A stretch of 64,000 nucleotides of DNA from positions 149,541-213,540 of the forward strand of contig CAYTWA010000004.1 of NCBI GenBank assembly GCA_964441955.1. The letters are read 5' to 3'. Below are positions 20,337 through 29,612 of this stretch, piece after piece. Below the pieces are notes generated by a model. That model worked only from the letters and a program-made list of their open reading frames with translations, made no database searches and was not told the origin of the DNA. This stretch comes from an uncultured Elusimicrobia bacterium (GTDB lineage: Bacteria; Elusimicrobiota; Elusimicrobia; 2-01-FULL-59-12). The position numbers and the translations under genes are program-made. Numbering within the stretch: the first letter of the stretch is position 1; each line of letters opens with the position of its first letter.

Positions 20337-20410
20337 GTGGGAGAGGGAGTGGGAGTCAAGGAAGTCTTTATTAAAATTAAAAATACCTCGACTCCCACTC
20401 CCTCTCCCAC
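20337..20410. repeat. Perfect 21-bp inverted repeat with a 32-nt AT-rich spacer (GGGAGRGGG palindrome family)
   Basis: GTGGGAGAGGGAGTGGGAGTC (20337..20357) pairs with GACTCCCACTCCCTCTCCCAC (20390..20410). It fills the moxR-DUF58 intergenic gap. Confidence 0.9.
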
Positions 20411-20419
20411 GGATTCGCT

Positions 20420-21295
20420 ATGTTGACACGCGATCTCATCTCCCAAGTCCGTCGCCTCGAGATTAAAACTCGTCGTCTCGTGAACGACGTGTTCTCCGGC
20501 GCTTACTCCTCCGTGTTCCGGGGCTTAGGCATGGAGTTTGCCGAAGTGCGCGAATACGTGCCGGGGGATGATGTGCGCGCCATCGACTGGAATGTGACCG
20601 CTCGCATGAACCACCCTTACATCAAGAAATTCATGGCCGAGCGTGAGATGACCGTTATTTTGCTGGTGGATGCCAGTGCTTCGATGCGCTTTGGCACGAC
20701 ACCTAAATGGAAATCGGAACTGGCGGCAGAAATTGCGGCCGTACTGGGTTTTTCGGCGATTCGAAACAGCGATAAAGTAGGGTTGTGTCTGTTTACGGAT
20801 CGCGTCGAACGGTTTGTTCGCCCCCAAAAGGGCCGTACGCATACCTTGCGCCTTATCCGCGACGTGCTGGAATTCTCCCCGGAACATAAGGGAACGAATC
20901 TGGATGAAGCGCTAAGGTATTTAAACCGCGTGGTCAAACGAAAAGCCGTCGTGTTTCTTCTATCCGATTTTTATTCTTACAGTGAACGGTTGTTGGCGAT
21001 CACGGCCAAACGTCACGATTTGGTGGCCCTTCAGGTGGTCGACCCCCGCGAGCAAACGCTGCCTTCTGCGGGCCTCATCGAATGGCACGCGGCGGAAACG
21101 GGCCAAACCATGACACTGGATACGTCGGATCGCCGCGTTCGAGTGCGTTTTGAGGCGCTAGCGCGCGAGCGCCTGGCCCGGGCCGAACACATTTTCCGCC
21201 GGCACGGCATCGATCATATTCTCCTTCGAACGGACCGCTCGTTTGTGGCGCCTTTGGTCCAGTTTTTCCATCAACGTGTTAAACGATTCCGCTGA
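20420..21295 (+). CDS. DUF58 (vWA-like) protein of MoxR/Bat operons
   Basis: 291 aa. 'GAYSSVFRGLGMEFAEVREYVPGDDVRAIDWNVTAR' and 'VILLVDASASM' are typical DUF58 motifs. Confidence 0.85.
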   Translation: MLTRDLISQVRRLEIKTRRLVNDVFSGAYSSVFRGLGMEFAEVREYVPGDDVRAIDWNVTARMNHPYIKKFMAEREMTVILLVDASASMRFGTTPKWKSELAAEIAAVLGFSAIRNSDKVGLCLFTDRVERFVRPQKGRTHTLRLIRDVLEFSPEHKGTNLDEALRYLNRVVKRKAVVFLLSDFYSYSERLLAITAKRHDLVALQVVDPREQTLPSAGLIEWHAAETGQTMTLDTSDRRVRVRFEALARERLARAEHIFRRHGIDHILLRTDRSFVAPLVQFFHQRVKRFR

Positions 21296-22151
21296 TCCAA
21301 GCCTGGCCGTTAAAGCCGAAGTATCGCCGACCTCCGCCAAAGTGGGCGATGTGGTCATGTTGGAGATTCGCGTGGAGCATCCGTTAACGCTGGTCATTGA
21401 CCCGCCGACCTTCGCCAAGGAACTAGGTGCCTTTGAAATTCGCACGAGCACGCAATTGCCGGTTGAACTCCAAGGCGACAAGGGAATCGATCGTTTCCGC
21501 GCTGAACTTCAGTCCTTCACTACCGGCCAGCATAAATTACCGGGTTTAGAGGTTCCTTATCACAATGCCATGGGGCAGGCAGGCCGCGTGAAAACGCCCG
21601 AGCTCGTTGTGACCATTGAAGAATTTCCGCCTGGTCCAAAAGACAAAGGCGATATCCGCGGCATTGTAGGGGCCATCGGCCCCGTGGCCTGGCCGGCTTG
21701 GTGGTTGGTTTTCGCGGCCATTTTGTTTTCTGCCCTCTGCCTTCTACTTTGGCGCAAGCGCCAGCGCGCGCGGCAAGGGCCGCCGCCTCCACCGCCCATT
21801 CCACCGGATCAAGAGGCGCTGGCCAAGCTTCGTGAGTTGGAAGCGTCCACTCTTTTGGCGAACGGAAAAATAAAAGAGTTTTACAGTGCGCTCTCCGACA
21901 TCGTGCGGTTGTACCTGGAACAAGGTTTTAAGGTGATGGCGCTTGAACGCACCACGGCTGAACTCATGCGGGACCTGCGCCGAAACCCGCATGTCCAAAC
22001 GGATTGGCATGCGACGCTGCGCCATCTTCTGGAGGCCTGCGACTTAGTCAAATTCGCCAAGTTCCGCCCTTCTTCCGAAGAAGGAAAAGAAGAACTAAAC
22101 AAAGCCATTCAGTTTGTCGAGCACTCCCGTTCGGCGGTGGCGAAAAAGTGA
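21243..22151 (+). CDS. Bat-operon membrane protein (BatD-like Ig N-domain, TM helix, DUF4381-like C-domain)
   Basis: 302 aa with one TM helix (WWLVFAAILFSALCLLLW). The C-terminal 'ALAKLRELE...EFYSALSDIVRLYLEQGF...TTAEL...CDLVKFAKF' resembles DUF4381. The start is uncertain because the ORF overlaps DUF58 by 53 nt. ATG 21357 is an alternative. Confidence 0.55.
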   Translation: MWRLWSSFSINVLNDSADPSLAVKAEVSPTSAKVGDVVMLEIRVEHPLTLVIDPPTFAKELGAFEIRTSTQLPVELQGDKGIDRFRAELQSFTTGQHKLPGLEVPYHNAMGQAGRVKTPELVVTIEEFPPGPKDKGDIRGIVGAIGPVAWPAWWLVFAAILFSALCLLLWRKRQRARQGPPPPPPIPPDQEALAKLRELEASTLLANGKIKEFYSALSDIVRLYLEQGFKVMALERTTAELMRDLRRNPHVQTDWHATLRHLLEACDLVKFAKFRPSSEEGKEELNKAIQFVEHSRSAVAKK

Positions 22152-23137
22152 ACTTTGCTAACCCGCTTTTTCTTTTGTTCCTCCCTTTAATAGGGCTCTT
22201 AGCCTGGTGGCGGGAACGCCCGGCATCGCCTCAAACGGCCCGGCTTCCTTTTCCGGAGGAGTCGCTTCTACGTGCGGCGCCCGAAACGTGGCGAACGCGC
22301 TTGGCTTGGGTACCGGCCGCGCTGCTCTATGCCGGCTTGGCGCTTGCCGTCATCGCGTTAGCCCGTCCGCGCTCGCTCCTTAAAGGAGAAGAAGCGCGAG
22401 AAAGAGGGATCGACATCATGATTGCGCTCGATACCTCGGGCTCGATGCGAGCGCTGGATTTCAACCCGCAAGACCGAATGGCGGTGGCTAAAAAGGCCAC
22501 GCGGATGTTCATTACCCGCCGTAAAGCGGACCGGATCGGTTTAGTGGTGTTTGCGGGGGTCGCGCTGCTTCAATGCCCGCTGACGCTCGATTACGCGGCG
22601 CTGTTGGATTTTTTTGAACAAGTTCAGGTGGGGATGACGCAAACGGAAAATACCGCCGTCGGCACGGCGATCGCCGCCGCGGCCAATCGCCTTAAGAAAA
22701 GCACCGCAAAAAGCCGGGTCATTATTCTTGTGACCGACGGGCGATCAAACGCCGGGGAAATAGACGCGCTCACCGCCGCCAAAGCGGCGGAAGGGCTCGG
22801 AATTCGCATTTACACGATCGGTGTGGGCATCCGTGGTCAATCGGTTATTCCCGTGGACACGATGTGGGGAAAGCAGTTAGTTCCCATTCAAGAAGATTTG
22901 GATGAGCCAAACTTGGAACAGATTGCCCGCAGCACGGGGGGGCGTTTTTATCGTGCCTCGAGCCCTAAGGAACTCGATCACATTTTTGGAGAGATCGATC
23001 AGTTGGAAAAAACGGATATCCAAGCGCCGTCTTCGCAGGCGTATCAGGACCGCTATCTGGCGTGGTTGTTGGCGGCGATGACGTGTTTAGGGGTGGGCTT
23101 TGGGCTAAAAGCAAGCGTGTGGCGAACGGTCCCATGA
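22148..23137 (+). CDS. batA: BatA-type vWA-domain membrane protein
   Basis: The tracked ORF is trimmed to a GTG that overlaps the upstream stop as GTGA. 'FANPLFLLFLPLIGLLAWW' is the N-terminal TM segment. The vWA MIDAS motif is 'IMIALDTSGSM', followed by 'VILVTDGRSNAGE' and a C-terminal TM segment. Confidence 0.85.
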   Translation: MNFANPLFLLFLPLIGLLAWWRERPASPQTARLPFPEESLLRAAPETWRTRLAWVPAALLYAGLALAVIALARPRSLLKGEEARERGIDIMIALDTSGSMRALDFNPQDRMAVAKKATRMFITRRKADRIGLVVFAGVALLQCPLTLDYAALLDFFEQVQVGMTQTENTAVGTAIAAAANRLKKSTAKSRVIILVTDGRSNAGEIDALTAAKAAEGLGIRIYTIGVGIRGQSVIPVDTMWGKQLVPIQEDLDEPNLEQIARSTGGRFYRASSPKELDHIFGEIDQLEKTDIQAPSSQAYQDRYLAWLLAAMTCLGVGFGLKASVWRTVP

Positions 23138-23147
23138 TGCTTGAAGG

Positions 23148-23210
23148 CTGGGGTCAGATCCGGTTTTCAAGCAAAACCGTGCGTTGCTTGAAAACCGGAT
23201 CTGACCCCAG
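23148..23210. repeat. Perfect 27-bp stem / 9-nt loop hairpin between batA and batB
   Basis: CTGGGGTCAGATCCGGTTTTCAAGCAA, then aaccgtgcg, then TTGCTTGAAAACCGGATCTGACCCCAG. No U-tract follows it. Confidence 0.9.
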
Positions 23211-23232
23211 TTGTTAAGCAAGAGAGGAATTA

Positions 23233-24246
23233 GTGAATTACTTCGCGTATCCAGAATTATGGGGATGGTTGGTGGTTCCCGGGGTCCTTTGGGGACTCGG
23301 AATTTTCATGGCTCGCTGGCGCCGCCAAACCCTCCAACAATTGGGCCCTATTCCCAACAGCGCGGTTGATCGACTGTTGCCGGCGGGGCTCGCCCGGCGC
23401 AGGGCGTGGGTGTTGTTTTTGCAGGTGGCCGGGTTATTTTTCATGGTCTTGGCGCTGGCGGGGCCGTTGATCGGGACTAAACTGATGGAATTTCGGCAGA
23501 AAGGGCTGGATGTGTTGATGGCGGTGGATTGCTCCTTGTCCATGCAAGCACAGGATTTTAAGCCTTCGCGTATGGCCCATGCTAAATTGGTGCTCGGGCA
23601 AATGATCGACCGCTTAGGGGGCAGCCGAATCGGTGTGATAGCCTTTGCGGGCCAAGCGTACCTTCAGTGCCCGCTCACCATCGACCAAAATGCGGCGCGC
23701 GATACCTTAGACACCTTGGACAGCGGCGCCGTTCCCATTGCGGGAACCAAAATTGGCGATGCCATTCGTTTGGCGGTTCAAGGGTTGAAAGCAGGTGAAG
23801 GCGGCAACCGCGTACTCGTGCTGCTGACAGACGGTGAAGACCATCAAAGCGACCCACTTTCGGCGGCGAAAGAAGCATCGAAAGCCGGCGTCAAAGTCTT
23901 TACGATCGGCATCGGCAACGCCGAAGGCGAGCCTATTCCAGTTTTTAATGACAAAGGCGAGCGAACCGGCTACAAGCGTGATAGAAAAGGCGAGGTGGTA
24001 CTTTCCCGTGTGGATGAAAAGACTTTGGAAACCATCAGTCGGGAAACCCAAGGGCAGTATTTCCGGGCTGGCCCCGGCGGCGATGAAGTGGAGCCGCTCC
24101 TGCGCGAGCTTGAAAAACTGCAAGGCGGGGACCGAAAAACCCAAATGTTTAATCGCTATGAGAATCGGTTTCAGTGGCCGTTGGCGGTGGCGCTTACGCT
24201 ACTTCTAATAAGTTTGGCAATTCCGGAGATGGGGTTTCGGCGGTGA
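23233..24246 (+). CDS. batB: BatB-type vWA-domain membrane protein
   Basis: 337 aa with N-terminal TM helices, 'VLMAVDCSLSM' (MIDAS), 'VLVLLTDGEDH' and a C-terminal TM segment. Confidence 0.85.
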   Translation: MNYFAYPELWGWLVVPGVLWGLGIFMARWRRQTLQQLGPIPNSAVDRLLPAGLARRRAWVLFLQVAGLFFMVLALAGPLIGTKLMEFRQKGLDVLMAVDCSLSMQAQDFKPSRMAHAKLVLGQMIDRLGGSRIGVIAFAGQAYLQCPLTIDQNAARDTLDTLDSGAVPIAGTKIGDAIRLAVQGLKAGEGGNRVLVLLTDGEDHQSDPLSAAKEASKAGVKVFTIGIGNAEGEPIPVFNDKGERTGYKRDRKGEVVLSRVDEKTLETISRETQGQYFRAGPGGDEVEPLLRELEKLQGGDRKTQMFNRYENRFQWPLAVALTLLLISLAIPEMGFRR

Positions 24247-24944
24247 TGCGGCGAAGGGCAAAACAAATAGAAAATAGAACCACACAGACAAAGGCGAATA
24301 GGAATAAAGCCTCGTCTTTATTTCTTTATTCCTGTGTGGTTTCCGTGCTTTTTTCTTTTTGTTTTGCCGTACCTCTCCAAGCCTCAAACTCCCGCCTCAA
24401 AGAAGGCAACCGTCAATTTAAAAACGGTCATTACGATAAAGCGCTCAAGATTTACGACGACGCGCTGATCGATGCCCCGCATTCGCCTGTTCTGCGCTTT
24501 AATGCGGGAGCTGCGGCTTACCAATCGGGCGATTTTGCTCGGGCTGAGAAGGAGTTCCAAGAGTCTGGACAAGCCTCACTTCTACCCCTTAAGAACGCCA
24601 GCCACTACAACCGCGGCAATGCGCTTTACCGACAAAGCCGCTACGATGAGGCGATGGACGCCTATAAAGACGCTTTGCGTATAAACCCCAAGGATGAAAA
24701 CGCAAAATATAATTTGAGCGTGGCGATGAGGGCGAAGCAAAACCCGCCCAAACCGCAACCGCCATCCGGAAAGCCGCAGGAGCAAAAGGGAAAACCGGAC
24801 AAGCAAGAATCCAAGGCGGAGCAGAAAAAGCCTTCTATGAACCGTGAGGACGCTGAACGTCTATTGTCCGCCGCGGCGGCCGGCGAAAAGAAGAAACAGC
24901 AAAAGGCGCAAGGCGAGGGGAAACAGGTTGATGAAGACTGGTAA
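24246..24944 (+). CDS. batC: BatC-type TPR protein
   Basis: The start is set at an ATG overlapping the batB stop (TGATG). It has a basic N-terminus plus TM helix (SLFLYSCVVSVLFSFCF), TPR repeats (NGHYDKALKIYDDAL...) and a Lys/Gln-rich tail. Confidence 0.75.
   Translation: MRRRAKQIENRTTQTKANRNKASSLFLYSCVVSVLFSFCFAVPLQASNSRLKEGNRQFKNGHYDKALKIYDDALIDAPHSPVLRFNAGAAAYQSGDFARAEKEFQESGQASLLPLKNASHYNRGNALYRQSRYDEAMDAYKDALRINPKDENAKYNLSVAMRAKQNPPKPQPPSGKPQEQKGKPDKQESKAEQKKPSMNREDAERLLSAAAAGEKKKQQKAQGEGKQVDEDW
24257..24368. repeat. ~112-nt imperfect palindromic module encoding the BatC N-terminal anchor (paralogue of 26803..26910)
   Basis: GGCAAAACAAATAGAAAATAGAACCACACAG...CTGTGTGGTTTCCGTGCTTTTTTCTTTTTGTTTTGCC. 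The arms are complementary with mismatches. It aligns to the batE module at roughly three quarters of positions by hand. Confidence 0.75.
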
Positions 24945-26799
24945 GGGCGTGGTACGTGGTAAGTGGTACGTGATACGAAAAGGCGTGAAGACGCTAGCCA
25001 TCTTGCTTACCACGTACCACCTATCACGTACCACGTTGTGTGCCGCCGATTTTCAGATCTCTGCCAGCCTCGACAAATCCCAAGTGGCTTTAAACGAGCA
25101 AACCGTTCTCTCCATCCATGTCTCCGGCTCTGGGAACAGTCTTCCCAACCCCAAACTACCCGCGCTGGCGGGTTTTCAGGTTTACAACGCCGGCCGGTCG
25201 CAAAATTTTTCTTGGATAAATGGGCAAGCCTCCGCAAGCGTCACGCATAACTTTGTGCTCACGCCCTTGCAGGAAGGCACGTTTAAAATTCCGCCGATCG
25301 TAGCCGAAAAAGATGGGCAGACGGCGCAGACGGGCGAACTGACTCTACGGGTGACCTCGGCGTCGTCATCCTCCGCCGTCCCTGGCGGAGGATCCACTTC
25401 ATCGATGGATCCCCGACAGGGGCATTCGGGGATGACGGACGGGCGTACCGCGGCCATCTTTATCACCGGTACGGTGGATAAAGCCAGTGTTTACGTGGGC
25501 GAACCAGTGGTCTACACATTCCGGCTTTTTAACCGTGTTCCACTTTTGCGCCAACCAGGCTATCAAGCGCCCGACGTTCAAGGGTTATGGAAAGAGGACT
25601 TGCCGCCGCAGCGCAACTTTAAAACCACTGTTAAAGGCGTGCCGTATAACGTGACAGAAATACGCACCGCTCTTTTCCCGACCGCACCCGGCAAAGCCCG
25701 TATCGGCTCGGCGCAGCTTCAGGTGATGCTTGAAAACGTCGGGGGCGATCCATTCAGTTCGGATTTTTTCGCCAGTTTCTTCGGGCGCGGTGAAGAAAAA
25801 GTGTTACGCACCGAACCCCTTTCCATCAGCGCAAAGGCGCTCCCCGAGCCCAAACCGGCGGCATTTAACGGCGCGGTGGGCCATTACACGTTGTCCTCTT
25901 CGTTGGATAAAACGGAAACCTCTGTCGGTCAGCCGGTCACCATGACCGTAACGATCTCCGGCCGGGGCAACATCAAATCTTTGCCGGAGATCAGCTTCCC
26001 CGCGCTGCCCAATTTCCGCACCCTGGCCGATAACGCCGCGGTACACGTTGAAAACCAAAACGATGAGGTGCGCGGCTCGAAAGTGTTTAAGACTGTGCTC
26101 ATTCCCACTACGTCCGGCGACTTAACCATTCCCACGTTGTCCTACGTTTATTTCGATACCGAAGCGAAAGCCTATAAAACGCTGGCGTCAAAGGCCTTTA
26201 CGCTGAAGGTTTTAGCCGGAACGGGGCCTCAAAAAAGCGCTGATCCTTCGTCACCTTTGGGGCCTGCCGCAAGTCCAAGCCGCACCGCGGGCATCCAGCG
26301 TTTGGCCGAGGATATTCACTATATCCGCACCTCGGAGAAGATTTCTTCGCAGGGGCGGCCGCTTTACCAGCACGCGTGGTTTCGCTGGCTGCATTTTTTT
26401 TCTCTGATGGGCATAGGCGGCTTCGGGTTCATTCGCCTCTATCAGCGCTTGTTTTTATCAGACCGCGCTGCGGCGCGTTTTAAAAATGCCAAAGGGACCG
26501 CGCTCATCCGTTTGGCCAAGGCGGATAAAGCCGATGCCATGGCGCAAACGCTTCAAGACTATCTGGCCGATAAATTAAATTTGGAAAGCCGCGAATTGTC
26601 GCTTCGCTCGGCCCAAGAAAAACTGCGTACACGCAGTGTCAGCGCCCACACGTTAGAGAAAATACGCAGCCTTTGGGAAACGCTCGACTTGTACCGTTTT
26701 GCTCCGGCGCAAACGAGGACGGATGATGTCAGTCAAGCCAAGATCGCGCTTGGGCAGCTCATCGAAGGGCTCGAAAAGGAAATCTTGTGGAAAGTTTGA
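24931..26799 (+). CDS. batD: BatD-type oxygen-tolerance protein
   Basis: The tracked ORF is trimmed to ATG 24931, which lies inside the batC 3' end. Repeated Ig-like BatD modules are present ('FQISASLDKSQVALNEQTVLSIHVSG', 'GTVDKASVYVGEPVVYTFRL'). A TM helix lies near residue 500 and a helical C-terminus follows. Confidence 0.8.
   Translation: MKTGKGVVRGKWYVIRKGVKTLAILLTTYHLSRTTLCAADFQISASLDKSQVALNEQTVLSIHVSGSGNSLPNPKLPALAGFQVYNAGRSQNFSWINGQASASVTHNFVLTPLQEGTFKIPPIVAEKDGQTAQTGELTLRVTSASSSSAVPGGGSTSSMDPRQGHSGMTDGRTAAIFITGTVDKASVYVGEPVVYTFRLFNRVPLLRQPGYQAPDVQGLWKEDLPPQRNFKTTVKGVPYNVTEIRTALFPTAPGKARIGSAQLQVMLENVGGDPFSSDFFASFFGRGEEKVLRTEPLSISAKALPEPKPAAFNGAVGHYTLSSSLDKTETSVGQPVTMTVTISGRGNIKSLPEISFPALPNFRTLADNAAVHVENQNDEVRGSKVFKTVLIPTTSGDLTIPTLSYVYFDTEAKAYKTLASKAFTLKVLAGTGPQKSADPSSPLGPAASPSRTAGIQRLAEDIHYIRTSEKISSQGRPLYQHAWFRWLHFFSLMGIGGFGFIRLYQRLFLSDRAAARFKNAKGTALIRLAKADKADAMAQTLQDYLADKLNLESRELSLRSAQEKLRTRSVSAHTLEKIRSLWETLDLYRFAPAQTRTDDVSQAKIALGQLIEGLEKEILWKV
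24948..25035. repeat. 30-bp imperfect inverted repeat built from TACCACG-like heptamers, over the batD start region
   Basis: CGTGGTACGTGGTAAGTGGTACGTGATACG (24948..24977) pairs with CTTACCACGTACCACCTATCACGTACCACG (25006..25035). 26 of 30 positions are complementary and the loop is 28 nt. Confidence 0.8.
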
Positions 26800-27629
26800 C
26801 GGAAAAACAAAAAGAAAATAGAACCGCGCGGGCAAAGGCGAAAAGTTATAGAGCGCTGTCTTTATGTCTCTATTCCTTTGTCGCCGTGGTGCTATTTTCT
26901 TTTTGTTTTGTCGTGCCCCGCCCCGCCTCCGCGGAATCTCCTCAGGAAACGTTCAAGCGCGCCAATGTTTTGTATTCCGAAGGAAAATTCACAGAGGCGG
27001 CCTCCGCTTATCAAGAGGCACGCGCGCCCGGCCTTCGCCATTGGGCTTTGGAATACAACTTAGGCAATGCCTACTTTAAAACCGGCCAAATAGGCCGTGC
27101 CATTGCCGCCTACGAACGCGCCTTCCGTTTAAATTCCGGGCAACGCGACGTGTTCGCCAATTTACGCCTGGCCACGGAGCGGGTGGGTGACCCGGTTGTG
27201 CCCCAAAGCGCTTTACCGGCGTTAGCCTGGCGGCTCTTTTTTCGAATTTCGATCAACACGCTGACGGTTTTGGCATCGCTTTTGTTTCTGAGTTTATTGG
27301 GTGCGGGAGGGCTTTCGTTGCTGCGCGGGAAGTCCACCTTAACCGGTGAACAATGGGCGGCGCTCATCATGGCCTTCCTTATTATGGGCGCCTGGCTCGC
27401 CGGCCGCATTTACGAACTCGAAAAACCCATAGGCATCATCATCGCCGCTCCCACCGCGGAAGTCCGCTCTGGCCCCAACACGAGCTACCCCGCGAGCTTC
27501 ACCGTCCCGGAAGGCCGCCACGTTCTGATCCTCAAAGACCAAGAACCCATCGACGGCTGGCTAGAAATCGGCGTCCCCCAAGAAGGGCTTAAAGGATGGG
27601 TGCCGTCGCCAGCCCTTGAGGTTTTATAA
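26787..27629 (+). CDS. batE: BatE-type TPR + SH3b protein
   Basis: 280 aa with a GTG start overlapping batD by 13 nt. The basic N-terminus plus TM helix is paralogous to that of BatC. TPRs are present (EGKFTEAASAYQEA...), followed by 2-3 TM helices and a C-terminal SH3b-like 'AEVRSGPNTSYPASFTVPEGRHVLILKDQEPIDGWLEI'. Confidence 0.75.
   Translation: MESLTEKQKENRTARAKAKSYRALSLCLYSFVAVVLFSFCFVVPRPASAESPQETFKRANVLYSEGKFTEAASAYQEARAPGLRHWALEYNLGNAYFKTGQIGRAIAAYERAFRLNSGQRDVFANLRLATERVGDPVVPQSALPALAWRLFFRISINTLTVLASLLFLSLLGAGGLSLLRGKSTLTGEQWAALIMAFLIMGAWLAGRIYELEKPIGIIIAAPTAEVRSGPNTSYPASFTVPEGRHVLILKDQEPIDGWLEIGVPQEGLKGWVPSPALEVL
26803..26910. repeat. ~108-nt imperfect palindromic module encoding the BatE N-terminal anchor
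   Basis: ACAAAAAGAAAATAGAACCGCGCGGGCAAAGG...CCTTTGTCGCCGTGGTGCTATTTTCTTTTTGT. It is paralogous to 24257..24368, and some arm differences are compensated. Confidence 0.75.
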
Positions 27630-27733
27630 CCGGTTTATGGATAGGGCCTAAAAACCGAAAGGTCTGTTGTCCCTGAGACATAGCCATTTATCCTCTACCA
27701 AGCGCGCGATAAATCCATTAACTTTGAAGTCGA

Positions 27734-28903
27734 ATGCGTGCTTTAAACCATCTTGTCTCAAGCGTCTGCGCCGCGTCTGTTTTGATGGCGTCTGGGCAGC
27801 CGTATATTAAATCCGACCAAACGGAAAACTCGACTGTATCCCTTATGCTGGTGGAAGCTTTAGCATCTCCTGCTTTAAACGTGCATCGCCAGCATTTAAA
27901 TTCTGCGCAAATCAACATCGTGCGATTATGCGAAGCGTTCTGGACGCAAGGCCGATTCTGGGGTAACGTAGCCGTTTCGTCACTGCTTATTCCGATGCTC
28001 GGAATGGGTATGGGTGGGGGTAGCGGCTCGCTAATCAAAGTGAAGAAAAAGCCAGGACGTCGATTCCTTCCTGTGTCCCCAAAAGCGCTTCGATGGCTGG
28101 AGGCAAACCGAAATACACAGTCATCAGAAAGCGTCGAAAAACTCGCCATTCGTTTAGGGGCTAGTGTTTGGCAATTACGACAAGCGTTCTCTCGTTACAA
28201 TATTGAGAAAAAGGGTACGCGATCGAAAGGCGCCACTAAAGTAAACGCTCTCAAGAGAGTTGAAAAGGAGATTAGCACTTTAAAACAGAAAGGGATTGAC
28301 GTGCTCCCCGAGGGCATTCGGGAAGCGGCACAGAATCGCGGATTAACGGTCGATGAATTTTCCAAGATCCTGAACCGAAACGACATGAAGACCAAGGGAT
28401 CCGCTGGGGTTCCACGGCCTACACAAAAAGGCGAATTGTTCCAGCGGCTGATCGAATCGGACCAAACCGCCAGAATGACAATCCCGCAAATTATGGCTCA
28501 TACGGGGTATACCGATAGCACCGTTCGAAAAAAATTGAAAAACGCCCAACGCACATTTCGCGCGGAGCCAAGGAATAATTTGGCCGTCCCCTCAGCGTTA
28601 CCGCCCGTCGCTGCAAATCCCGCGAAAATGTCAGATCCATCCCAAACAAGAGCCGAACGCATAGTTTCCGTTTTTCATGCCAAGCATGGCCGCGGAACCA
28701 TTATTGAAGTGGATAGAGTTTATCGAAGTGTGAAAATTCAGTTTTCTGAGGGTATCAGATGGTTCTCGGGGAAAACGGCAGAATCCCTTTTAAGAAAACT
28801 TAATATCCCCTTTATGGTTATCTTTTTAATAGCACGCCATGAAAACTGCTGGTCTATAAATGACGCCCGAAGCGCCCGTTTGTCCATAACGACAGCCGCT
28901 TAA
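27734..28903 (+). CDS. Orphan protein (signal-anchor, Gly/Met-rich hinge, basic helical repeats)
   Basis: 389-aa ORF, visibly AT-richer than its neighbours. The N-terminal 'LVSSVCAASVLMASG' is followed by '...LVEALASPAL...'. No family recognised. Confidence 0.45.
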   Translation: MRALNHLVSSVCAASVLMASGQPYIKSDQTENSTVSLMLVEALASPALNVHRQHLNSAQINIVRLCEAFWTQGRFWGNVAVSSLLIPMLGMGMGGGSGSLIKVKKKPGRRFLPVSPKALRWLEANRNTQSSESVEKLAIRLGASVWQLRQAFSRYNIEKKGTRSKGATKVNALKRVEKEISTLKQKGIDVLPEGIREAAQNRGLTVDEFSKILNRNDMKTKGSAGVPRPTQKGELFQRLIESDQTARMTIPQIMAHTGYTDSTVRKKLKNAQRTFRAEPRNNLAVPSALPPVAANPAKMSDPSQTRAERIVSVFHAKHGRGTIIEVDRVYRSVKIQFSEGIRWFSGKTAESLLRKLNIPFMVIFLIARHENCWSINDARSARLSITTAA

Positions 28904-28943
28904 TTTTTCATGTAATGCGAGCAATCGAGTAAAATTCCCTTGC

Positions 28944-29528
28944 GTGCGGCAATCATCCCCCTTTATAAAGTTTGACCATTGGTTCAAAATCGCGCGGCGC
29001 GATCGTCGCATCGGCGATGCGACGGCCATGTGCGTCTCAACGATTTCCTCCGCGCTGTACCCCGATAACCGAATGGTGTTGTTGAAGGAATTTGACGAAC
29101 ATGGGTTCGTTTTTTTTACCAACCTAACGTCATCCAAAGGGCAGGCGCTTCGCCGCGCGCCGCGGGCGGCCATTACTTTTTTCTGGGAACCACTTGGACG
29201 GCAAGTCCGCATTCAGGGAAAGACCGAAATCGTCTCCGATGCCGAAGCCGATGCGTACTGGGTCACGCGGCCGCGTGTGTCGCAATTGGGGGCCTGGGCC
29301 TCCAAACAAAGCCGACCGCTTTCCAGTTACGCCTTCTTGATGAAGGAGGTTCGCAGGTACGCCAAGCAGTTTAAGGGTATACCCGTGCCTCGGCCGTCCT
29401 ACTGGACCGGCATCCGCGTGATTCCTTCCAAAATCGAATTCTGGTCTGCCCGCCCCAACCGTTTGCATGACCGGCTGCTTTATACCCGACGAGGGAAAAC
29501 CTGGCGCCTTCAGCGTCTGTTTCCTTAA
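28944..29528 (+). CDS. pdxH: Pyridoxamine 5'-phosphate oxidase
   Basis: 'RMVLLKEFDEHGFVFFTNLTSSKG', 'AITFFWEPLGRQVRIQG', 'YWVTRPRVSQLGAWAS.QS', 'PRPSYWTGIRVIPSKIEFW' and 'RLHDRLLY' are canonical PdxH blocks. It has a GTG start and a slightly short N-terminus. Confidence 0.8.
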   Translation: MRQSSPFIKFDHWFKIARRDRRIGDATAMCVSTISSALYPDNRMVLLKEFDEHGFVFFTNLTSSKGQALRRAPRAAITFFWEPLGRQVRIQGKTEIVSDAEADAYWVTRPRVSQLGAWASKQSRPLSSYAFLMKEVRRYAKQFKGIPVPRPSYWTGIRVIPSKIEFWSARPNRLHDRLLYTRRGKTWRLQRLFP

Positions 29529-29532
29529 TAAA

Positions 29533-29612
29533 CCCCTCCCTTTGAAAAAGGGAGGTTGGGAGGGATTTCGCCCTACGGCAAATCCCCCTCGATCCCCCTT
29601 TTTCAAAGGGGG
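29533..29612. repeat. Nested palindromic repeat (three hairpins; GGGAGG/CCCTCC family) downstream of pdxH
   Basis: CCTCCCTTT-gaa-AAAGGGAGG (29535..29555). GGGATTT...AAATCCC (29562..29586). CCCCCTTT-ttc-AAAGGGGG (29594..29612). Hairpins 1 and 3 are inverted copies of each other. Confidence 0.8.

Follow-up and report, generated by a model that had tools for sequence, protein, structure and literature searches.

The stretch under study (C4:149541-213540, 64 kb; hereafter the window) belongs to a 2.55-Mb, 16-contig metagenome-assembled genome (MAG; G000) with some N runs, whose relatives carry the Elusimicrobiota label. At 19.3-27.6 kb the window holds a bat-type (MoxR/VWA/TPR) operon, which comprises, in order, moxR, DUF58, an unnamed open reading frame (ORF) with a hydrophobic segment, batA, batB, batC, batD and batE. 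The last three genes each begin ahead of the preceding gene's stop codon (Table 1). Both batC and batE open with a long palindromic stretch of DNA, and these two stretches, the wider repeat family to which they belong (family A) and the N-termini that they encode are the subject of this analysis. The batE start is preceded, 8-9 nt upstream, by an AAGGA Shine-Dalgarno-like motif that is conserved in relatives, and batC has no in-frame start between its palindrome and the conserved LKEGNRQFKNG.

batC and batE begin with copies of one hairpin-forming repeat

The 5' ends of batC and batE can be aligned as DNA. A repeat search pairs 24257-24385 with 26801-26929 at 78% identity, and blastn within the genome gives 78.6% identity over 117 nt (E 5e-22). 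The original prediction, made by hand from the sequence of the window, had put the agreement at about three quarters of positions, which is borne out by 78-79% identity over ~117-129 nt. The two copies share one reading frame relative to the repeat. Each is also, as had been proposed, a long imperfect palindrome with arms of 53-55 nt: 24257-24309 and 24316-24368 in batC are 72% complementary, and 26799-26853 and 26860-26914 in batE are 75% complementary. Folded as RNA, the batC module gives -44.2 kcal/mol (z -6.5) and the batE module -51.4 kcal/mol (z -7.1), where z is taken against 200 dinucleotide shuffles, none of which folds as well. The resulting imperfect hairpins have the ~45 bp first estimated, but they do not span the translation start as was then supposed: the start codon lies outside, and the hairpin begins at codon 4-5, at +11 from ATG 24246 in batC and at +12 from GTG 26787 in batE.

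A codon-preserving control was performed for both genes, wherein the peptide was kept fixed and synonymous codons were resampled 300 times from genome usage. The resamples have a mean minimum free energy of -35 kcal/mol for batC and -34 kcal/mol for batE; as resampled codons still come near -35 kcal/mol, the peptide itself must force much of the pairing, and may be called 'palindromic'. The native sequences fold lower than this, with the batE value of -51.4 kcal/mol being reached by 0/300 synonymous resamples and the batC value of -45.7 kcal/mol by 13/300. Because native codons fold lower than synonymous ones, the DNA palindrome looks primary, and not a by-product of the amino-acid sequence.

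Family A is dispersed through the genome

To call the batC and batE modules a paralogous pair proved too narrow, as they are two of seven dispersed copies. Iterated nhmmer searches (E 1e-16 to 1e-27) and blastn recovered seven full-length and at least three partial copies of a ~113-nt unit on four contigs, and half-copies and isolated arms are also present. Four of the seven full-length copies are intergenic and three are coding (batC, batE and a gene for a TPM_phosphatase-domain protein, which adds a third case at a gene 5' end). The coding copies all stand directly after or across an upstream stop. The TPM copy (C1:515720-515838, L128) serves two genes. A WecG glycosyltransferase has its C-terminal tail (..TAKQKENRMHG) and its stop from this copy, and the next gene on the same strand, for the TPM protein, has its start and signal peptide from it (MDKMRKSKSMRAVYFNPFWIFAACYFLFVLPSAA), with the repeat used in opposite orientation and in another frame.

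All seven copies fold as hairpins, with z from -2.3 to -14.6, and the best hairpin is that of the intergenic C2 copy (50 bp, -62.9 kcal/mol, z -14.6). The family is characterised by a conserved 26-bp outer stem with termini GGCAAAACAAAAAGAAAATAG...CTATTTTCTTTTTGTTTTGCC and a variable centre. The earlier claim that differences between the arms are compensated holds in part. Clean double compensatory changes are found at 5/31 consensus pairs among the seven copies, but in the example first quoted part of the difference comes from batC pairing in a shifted register (internal loops of 8 and 6 nt) and not from clean double substitutions.

Table 1 Genes, hairpins and family-A copies. Positions without a contig label are those of the window.
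Feature	Position	Strand	Remarks
batB (VWA protein)	23233..24246	+	stop codon 10 nt before batC hairpin
batC (TPR protein)	24246..24944	+	ATG overlaps batB stop (GTGATG)
batD (PF13584)	24931..26799	+	ATG overlaps batC end by 14 nt
batE (TPR + SH3_3 protein)	26787..27629	+	GTG start overlaps batD end by 13 nt
Family-A copy in batC	24257..24368; C4:173797	+	codons ~4-41; A-rich 5' arm, KQIENRTTQTKANRNK; T-rich 3' arm, LFLYSCVVSVLFSFCF
Family-A copy in batE	26799..26914; C4:176341	+	codons ~5-43; first base is last base of batD stop (TGA|CGG)
Family-A copy	C1:515720		straddles junction of WecG glycosyltransferase and TPM_phosphatase-domain genes
Family-A copy	C1:580426		intergenic, between convergent genes; abuts sufS stop
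Family-A copy	C2:159673		intergenic
Family-A copy	C3:159067		intergenic
Family-A copy	C3:163566		intergenic
batD hairpin, other family (GTGGTAC heptamer arms)	24948..25035	+	batD codons 6-35; 3 nt past batC stop
GGGAG-type hairpin	20337..20410		fills moxR/DUF58 gap; large dispersed family
37-nt-arm hairpin	23138..23220		fills batA/batB gap; second copy on contig C6
CCCTTTGAAAAAGGG-type hairpin	29538..29610		between pdxH and serS; family of at least 11 copies

Several observations concern the edges and fragments of family A. The right ends of the copies at C1:580537, C2:159784 and C3:159176 read CCGTTA, TCGTTTAA and CTGTTAG, which puts a possible TAA stop at the edge of the element when the opposite strand is read. 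The sufS stop abuts its element exactly as the batD stop does at batE. The intergenic copies at C3:159067-159176 and C3:163566-163683 have similar right flanks (GAAAATGACTTCAAAGTGAC) and may be part of a longer duplicated segment, not independent insertions. A lone arm at C3:157666-157690, just upstream of gatC, adds ..IIFSFCYAVP.. to the gatC ORF; GatC itself probably starts further downstream.

Matches to family A were also sought more widely. A two-arm pattern gave 0 matches in metagenome contigs, and a one-arm pattern gave 91 single-arm matches in the same material, none of them palindromic. Among these, the family profile matched only L046 and L095, both weakly, and the two were rejected as chance, the former being in a LysE-type membrane gene with no hairpin and the latter being marginal (E ~0.07). 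A comparison with Rfam gave nothing above the gathering score for family A, and the sub-threshold miRNA-precursor-like matches reflect the long hairpin only.

The repeat encodes putative signal peptides

On either strand of family A the first arm is A-rich and the second T-rich, so that reading through in frame gives a charged and then a hydrophobic stretch. This pattern, K/Q/N/E/R-rich followed by F/L/C/V-rich, is seen in all six frames of the copies. The coding copies are stop-free in the frame used, and the intergenic copies mostly carry stops. Judged from their predicted sequence, the charged and hydrophobic stretches match the n- and h-regions of a Sec signal peptide. By hand rules for hydropathy and charge, BatC has a net charge of +7 before the h-region VVSVLFSFCFAV (Kyte-Doolittle hydropathy, KD, of 2.64 in a 12-residue window) and continues to ..PLQA|S, and BatE has a net charge of +4, the h-region VAVVLFSFCFVV (KD 3.06 in a 12-residue window) and ..ASA|E. 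Both proteins have the features by which Sec signal peptides are recognised, namely a positive n-region, an h-region of 10-20 residues and small residues at -1/-3, with Ala-X-Ala-like sites following both h-regions.

Hairpins of other families encode N-terminal signal peptides in a DsbH/DUF255 thioredoxin-like protein at C1:9857 (C1:9855-10012, L129; ..KEGKEIRSQKVTFLRSDFLALLALLSFMSLNVNA), whose orthologues in relatives have plain signal peptides or none, and in a 273-aa orphan at C3:133780 (C3:133758-133923, L130; MKNENAKPKTQNSRLKTGIKFCILSFEFWALSFSFANA). Both hairpins begin a few nt past an upstream stop. GC-rich hairpin families at gene starts encode a Gly/Pro/Arg-rich peptide followed by a separate h-region. 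Heptamer-repeat arms such as those of the batD hairpin occur in several hairpin families of relatives as well (GGCAAAA/GGCAAAT, ACGCAGA).

The same sites in relatives are variously filled

At the site of the family-A module, the BatC and BatE proteins of relatives have ordinary signal peptides or hairpins of other sequence. Those of L013 start with short plain signal peptides (BatC MSAIRVRKIVRFCFRLSFLSFLLSASAQA, BatE ..RHWRWMLCFLSLFFCQAAFSA) and show no fold (z -0.6 and +0.5), and TPM orthologues likewise carry plain signal peptides. Across 12 genomes, the 5' segments before the mature N-terminus of BatC, BatD or BatE reach z <= -3 in 16/31 cases, compared with 0/32 for control segments inside batD.

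We then see from 68 BatE orthologues how scattered this occupancy is. Split by length, a measure that includes some mis-called starts, the set comprises 38 proteins with plain N-termini (<=27 residues) and 30 with extended ones. On a quick-search tree built from the mature domains, the state changes at least 20 times, compared with 22.3 +/- 2.2 changes when labels are shuffled, so there is essentially no phylogenetic signal in the type of BatE N-terminus. Strongly supported sister pairs differ in state, and the four species of genus g8 have two plain N-termini and two hairpin types of unrelated sequence. The batD hairpin of G004 is one of at least 13 dispersed copies, and the batE hairpin of G010 is almost unique. 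One family can be common to several bat genes of a genome, as in batC/batE of our own genome, batC/batD of L026 and batC/batE of L035. The batE hairpins of L034 (E 1.5e-5) and L035 give weak matches to the family-A profile; together the elements make up a loose superfamily, and some of the occupancy may be old.

In six genomes (our own, L034, L035, L036, L155 and L157) a batE hairpin stands directly after the batD stop (TAA|CGG or TGA|CGG), and the six differ in internal hairpin sequence. The hairpin ends in ..CCG|TT and leaves 10-19 nt (3-6 codons, the c-region) to the mature start. When the filled sites of L155 and L157 are compared with the plain sites of L153 and L154, the latter are found to have ~38 nt of ordinary h-region in place of the hairpin; the hairpin therefore replaces the n- and h-regions and is not added to them. 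Two hydrophobic segments in a row would be expected to invert the topology, so perhaps only replacements survive. In L036, the closest BatE relative (63%), the T-rich arm that forms the h-region is intact and the 5' arm is decayed, which fits selection on the peptide rather than on the stem.

Two further loci in relatives deserve mention. P0050, with a plain-signal BatE, and P0062, with a hairpin-type one (MSWQMANRRW..AICLLPYAICHVP), come from the same metagenome sample (JGI 3300050821) and have nearly identical mature domains, making them, by sequence, the best candidate for a recent filled/empty pair. P0004 and P0026 likewise rank among the closest BatE pairs of which one member is filled and the other empty. 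At L036:1-1670 (a JGI contig of 943 kb), the gene call fuses BatB and BatC into a single 592-aa VWA+TPR protein, in which case BatC would have no signal peptide of its own there.

The bat operon is a hairpin hot spot

A seed-and-fold census of the genome gave at least 76 long hairpins (~30 per Mb) in at least eight multi-copy families. Five census hairpins fall within the 9.3 kb from moxR to serS, compared with 0.28 expected (Poisson estimate, P ~1e-5). The long inverted repeats of the window, five plus the batC copy, all lie between moxR and serS (20337-29610), and the rest of the 64 kb has none at that threshold. Both here and in relatives, the bat operon is a hot spot for hairpins. An ACGG...CCGT terminal motif was considered as a hallmark of all hairpin families and rejected, being stem-paired in 10/74 census hairpins with no enrichment; it is specific to some families and to the batD/batE site.

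Transposase genes were found with other hairpins. Each of two Y1-transposase (PF01797) genes, at C1:21126-21452 (L132) and C5:172754-173080 (L131), has inverted GGTGCCAGGC-type hairpins on both sides, from census families 5 and 17. Such is the classical arrangement of a repetitive extragenic palindrome (REP)-associated tyrosine transposase (RAYT) with its REP doublets forming hairpins (REPINs), and it is unrelated to family A. A link of family A to a RAYT or other transposase was accordingly discarded, both Y1 genes belonging with other hairpin families. A search for an autonomous parent with family-A ends found that the isolated arms flank no transposase, and the ORF between the C3 arms has no Pfam family. 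No shared direct repeat that could be a target-site duplication was seen in the flanks of the seven copies.

Discussion

Our interpretation starts from what can be read directly from these genomes: a repeat family with hairpin potential and an open frame, ordinary signal peptides in orthologues, and recurrent, scattered replacement at the same site in relatives. We consider it likely that the batC and batE modules are a non-autonomous dispersed palindromic repeat, similar to a Rickettsia palindromic element (RPE) or REP, that was exapted as signal-peptide coding sequence. Where a start codon overlaps the upstream stop, a hairpin placed right after that stop would fall inside the downstream gene. 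The repeat would in this manner have taken the place of the ancestral n- and h-regions in batC, batE and the unlinked TPM gene, with the short c-region and cleavage site deriving from the old flank. The hairpin would be translated, its peptide would direct export, and the repeat may spread by some form of mobility or gene conversion. A stem 11-12 nt past a start that overlaps the upstream stop should hinder independent initiation, and the RNA hairpin could tie translation of batC and batE to ribosomes that have just completed batB and batD. The original prediction had named structure-based translational control as the other possible origin; a hairpin right after the upstream stop, together with an overlapping start, is compatible with enforced translational coupling.

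A broader proposal, to which we give less than even credence and which we put forward tentatively, is that this Elusimicrobiota clade has in its purine-first palindromic repeats a lasting source of new Sec signal peptides. In the genetic code, hydrophilic codons stand opposite hydrophobic ones on the complementary strand, so that an A-rich/T-rich hairpin just after a stop in an overlapping operon would be a ready-made n- and h-region, repeatedly overwriting the resident signal peptide. Such a hairpin could send cytoplasmic proteins to the periplasm, and as RNA would tie downstream to upstream translation.

A number of points weigh against the exaptation reading. For family A we found neither a transposase with matching ends nor a target-site duplication, and no site that is filled in some members of the species and empty in others, so mobility has to be argued from copy number and distribution. 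The original prediction had suggested a mobile palindrome domesticated as a signal anchor, and the dispersed seven-copy family, the third gene (TPM) and the orthologues with other signal peptides agree with that origin, but the mobility is something we infer. The family is small (7 copies) and blastn found no match to it in 30 relatives, and the species representatives searched include no genome of the same genus by which insertions might be dated. Translation of the hairpin and export directed by its peptide are predictions from sequence. Several genomes have batE hairpins with the same boundaries and partly common sequence, and some of these could be old and passed on vertically, not newly inserted. 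Finally, the batD hairpin encodes a weak h-region (mean KD 1.18, containing Arg and His), so not every junction hairpin yields a convincing signal peptide.

The alternative to be taken most seriously, although we judge it unlikely as the principal account, is that the hairpins are mainly selected RNA structures at cistron junctions, acting by protection of the upstream 3' end, as does the REP between malE and malF, or by forced coupling, with the peptides a tolerated by-product and the dispersed copies doing the same job elsewhere; this would be compatible with exaptation. It draws on the hairpins at five operon junctions and the one after pdxH, on the density of five census hairpins in 9.3 kb compared with ~30 per Mb, and on hairpin onset at 0-12 nt past the upstream stop in all coding cases. 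Hairpins of unrelated sequence are also held at the same junctions in relatives, native codons out-pair synonymous ones, and the stems have compensatory pairs. However, many orthologous junctions are hairpin-free (z about 0), and closest relatives differ in presence without phylogenetic signal, where a structure that the operon needs ought to be kept more steadily. The closest BatE relative, L036, combines a decayed hairpin with an intact h-region, copies are found at non-operon sites too, and half-copies exist. It is improbable, in our estimation, that the palindrome arose in place, through template switching that copied a T-rich h-region inverted just upstream, and then seeded the other copies by gene conversion or recombination. 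The hairpin does always coincide with the h-region while the old c-region is kept, batE hairpins of several genomes have boundaries and some sequence in common, and batC, batD or batE can share one family per genome (our own, L026, L035). Yet four of the seven family-A copies are intergenic, with stops in all or most frames, and the best-preserved copy is among the intergenic ones. The junction hairpin of G004, moreover, belongs to a set of at least 13 dispersed copies, and on the BatE tree the WQMANGRWQ/AICLLPFAICHLP type turns up on branches far from one another.

Two explanations would do away with the extended N-termini or with the repeats themselves. If the true starts were GTG codons in the 3' arm, only a short h-region would be made and the charged n-region would be an artefact of ORF extension. 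In-frame GTGs are indeed present in the 3' arms (VVSVLFSF.., AVVLFSF..), and the database gene calls P0009, P0030 and P0063 from relatives begin inside the 3' arm. We nonetheless regard this as very improbable: the stop-overlapping ATG and GTG starts are conserved in position and sequence across relatives (ME+LT.., MK+G..), as is the AAGGA before batE, and the frame through the whole element is stop-free only in the coding copies. The internal GTGs have no Shine-Dalgarno-like motif, and a signal peptide starting there would have no positive n-region; even so, the h-region would be encoded by the 3' arm. That the repeats are chimeric inverted duplications made in assembly is scarcely credible. 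The genome is a MAG of 16 contigs with some N runs, but the seven copies lie on four contigs and are mutually diverged with compensations, the coding copies are in frame, and the same phenomenon is seen in independent NCBI, ENA, JGI and Logan assemblies.

The usual view is that signal peptides change through point mutations that are only loosely constrained. On the exaptation reading, a repeat family seems to furnish an entire functional module and to replace it time and again, because complementary A-rich and T-rich strands encode charged and hydrophobic residues. If the peptides do export their proteins, this would be a concrete case of selfish or semi-selfish DNA made directly into a protein-sorting signal, and would offer proteins a one-step route to a change of compartment. 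It would also caution those who call genes or predict signal peptides in MAGs that a long, odd n-region may have come from a repeat. The pairs of orthologues with and without a hairpin form a natural set for studying the effect of a strong hairpin at codons 5-40 on translational coupling.

Comparison with known systems

A literature search found no paper on palindromic repeats encoding signal peptides. The closest known case is the RPE. RPEs are dispersed hairpin repeats of ~100-150 nt that occur intergenically and in frame within genes, where they leave the frame intact and add a peptide segment (Ogata et al. 2000 Science 290:347; Ogata et al. 2002 Genome Res, PMC186582; summarised in PMC2996958). 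Family A is similarly dispersed, multi-copy and hairpin-forming, and is in frame without stops in batC, batE and the TPM gene, whose orthologues are found without the module. In contrast to RPEs, it is a small family (7 copies), unrelated in phylum and sequence, with copies at the extreme 5' end of genes that replace the n- and h-regions and plausibly carry their function. Membership in RPE-1 to RPE-10 by sequence is unlikely because the phylum is different. The use of family A in signal peptides is probably a new use of the 'selfish palindrome inside genes' known from Rickettsia.

REPs and bacterial interspersed mosaic elements (BIMEs) are imperfect palindromes that stand just after stop codons, within or at the ends of operons; they are extragenic by definition and number hundreds of copies. 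The REP between malE and malF has an RNA-level effect on the stability of the upstream cistron, and REPINs go with a RAYT gene that has the same repeat on its flanks. Family A resembles REPs and REPINs in its placement after stops and in that families are uniform per genome while differing between related genomes at the same positions. Four of its copies are extragenic, and three lie in coding sequence, directly after or across the upstream stop. The Y1 genes are flanked by GGTGCCAGGC-type hairpins, not by family A. Miniature inverted-repeat transposable elements (MITEs), such as the Correia elements of Neisseria and the enterobacterial repetitive intergenic consensus or intergenic repeat unit (ERIC/IRU), are short and non-autonomous, are often co-transcribed with their neighbours and sometimes alter gene ends. 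With these, family A has terminal inverted repeats in common, in the form of its 26-bp outer stem; unlike them, it is self-complementary over its whole length, with neither target-site duplication nor parent insertion sequence seen. Palindromic amphipathic repeat coding elements (PARCELs) are tandem intragenic repeats that encode amphipathic domains of surface proteins (PMC2996958). Family A is like PARCEL in being palindromic DNA whose translation has a useful physico-chemical pattern on either strand, and is unlike it in consisting of single dispersed hairpins that encode putative signal peptides.

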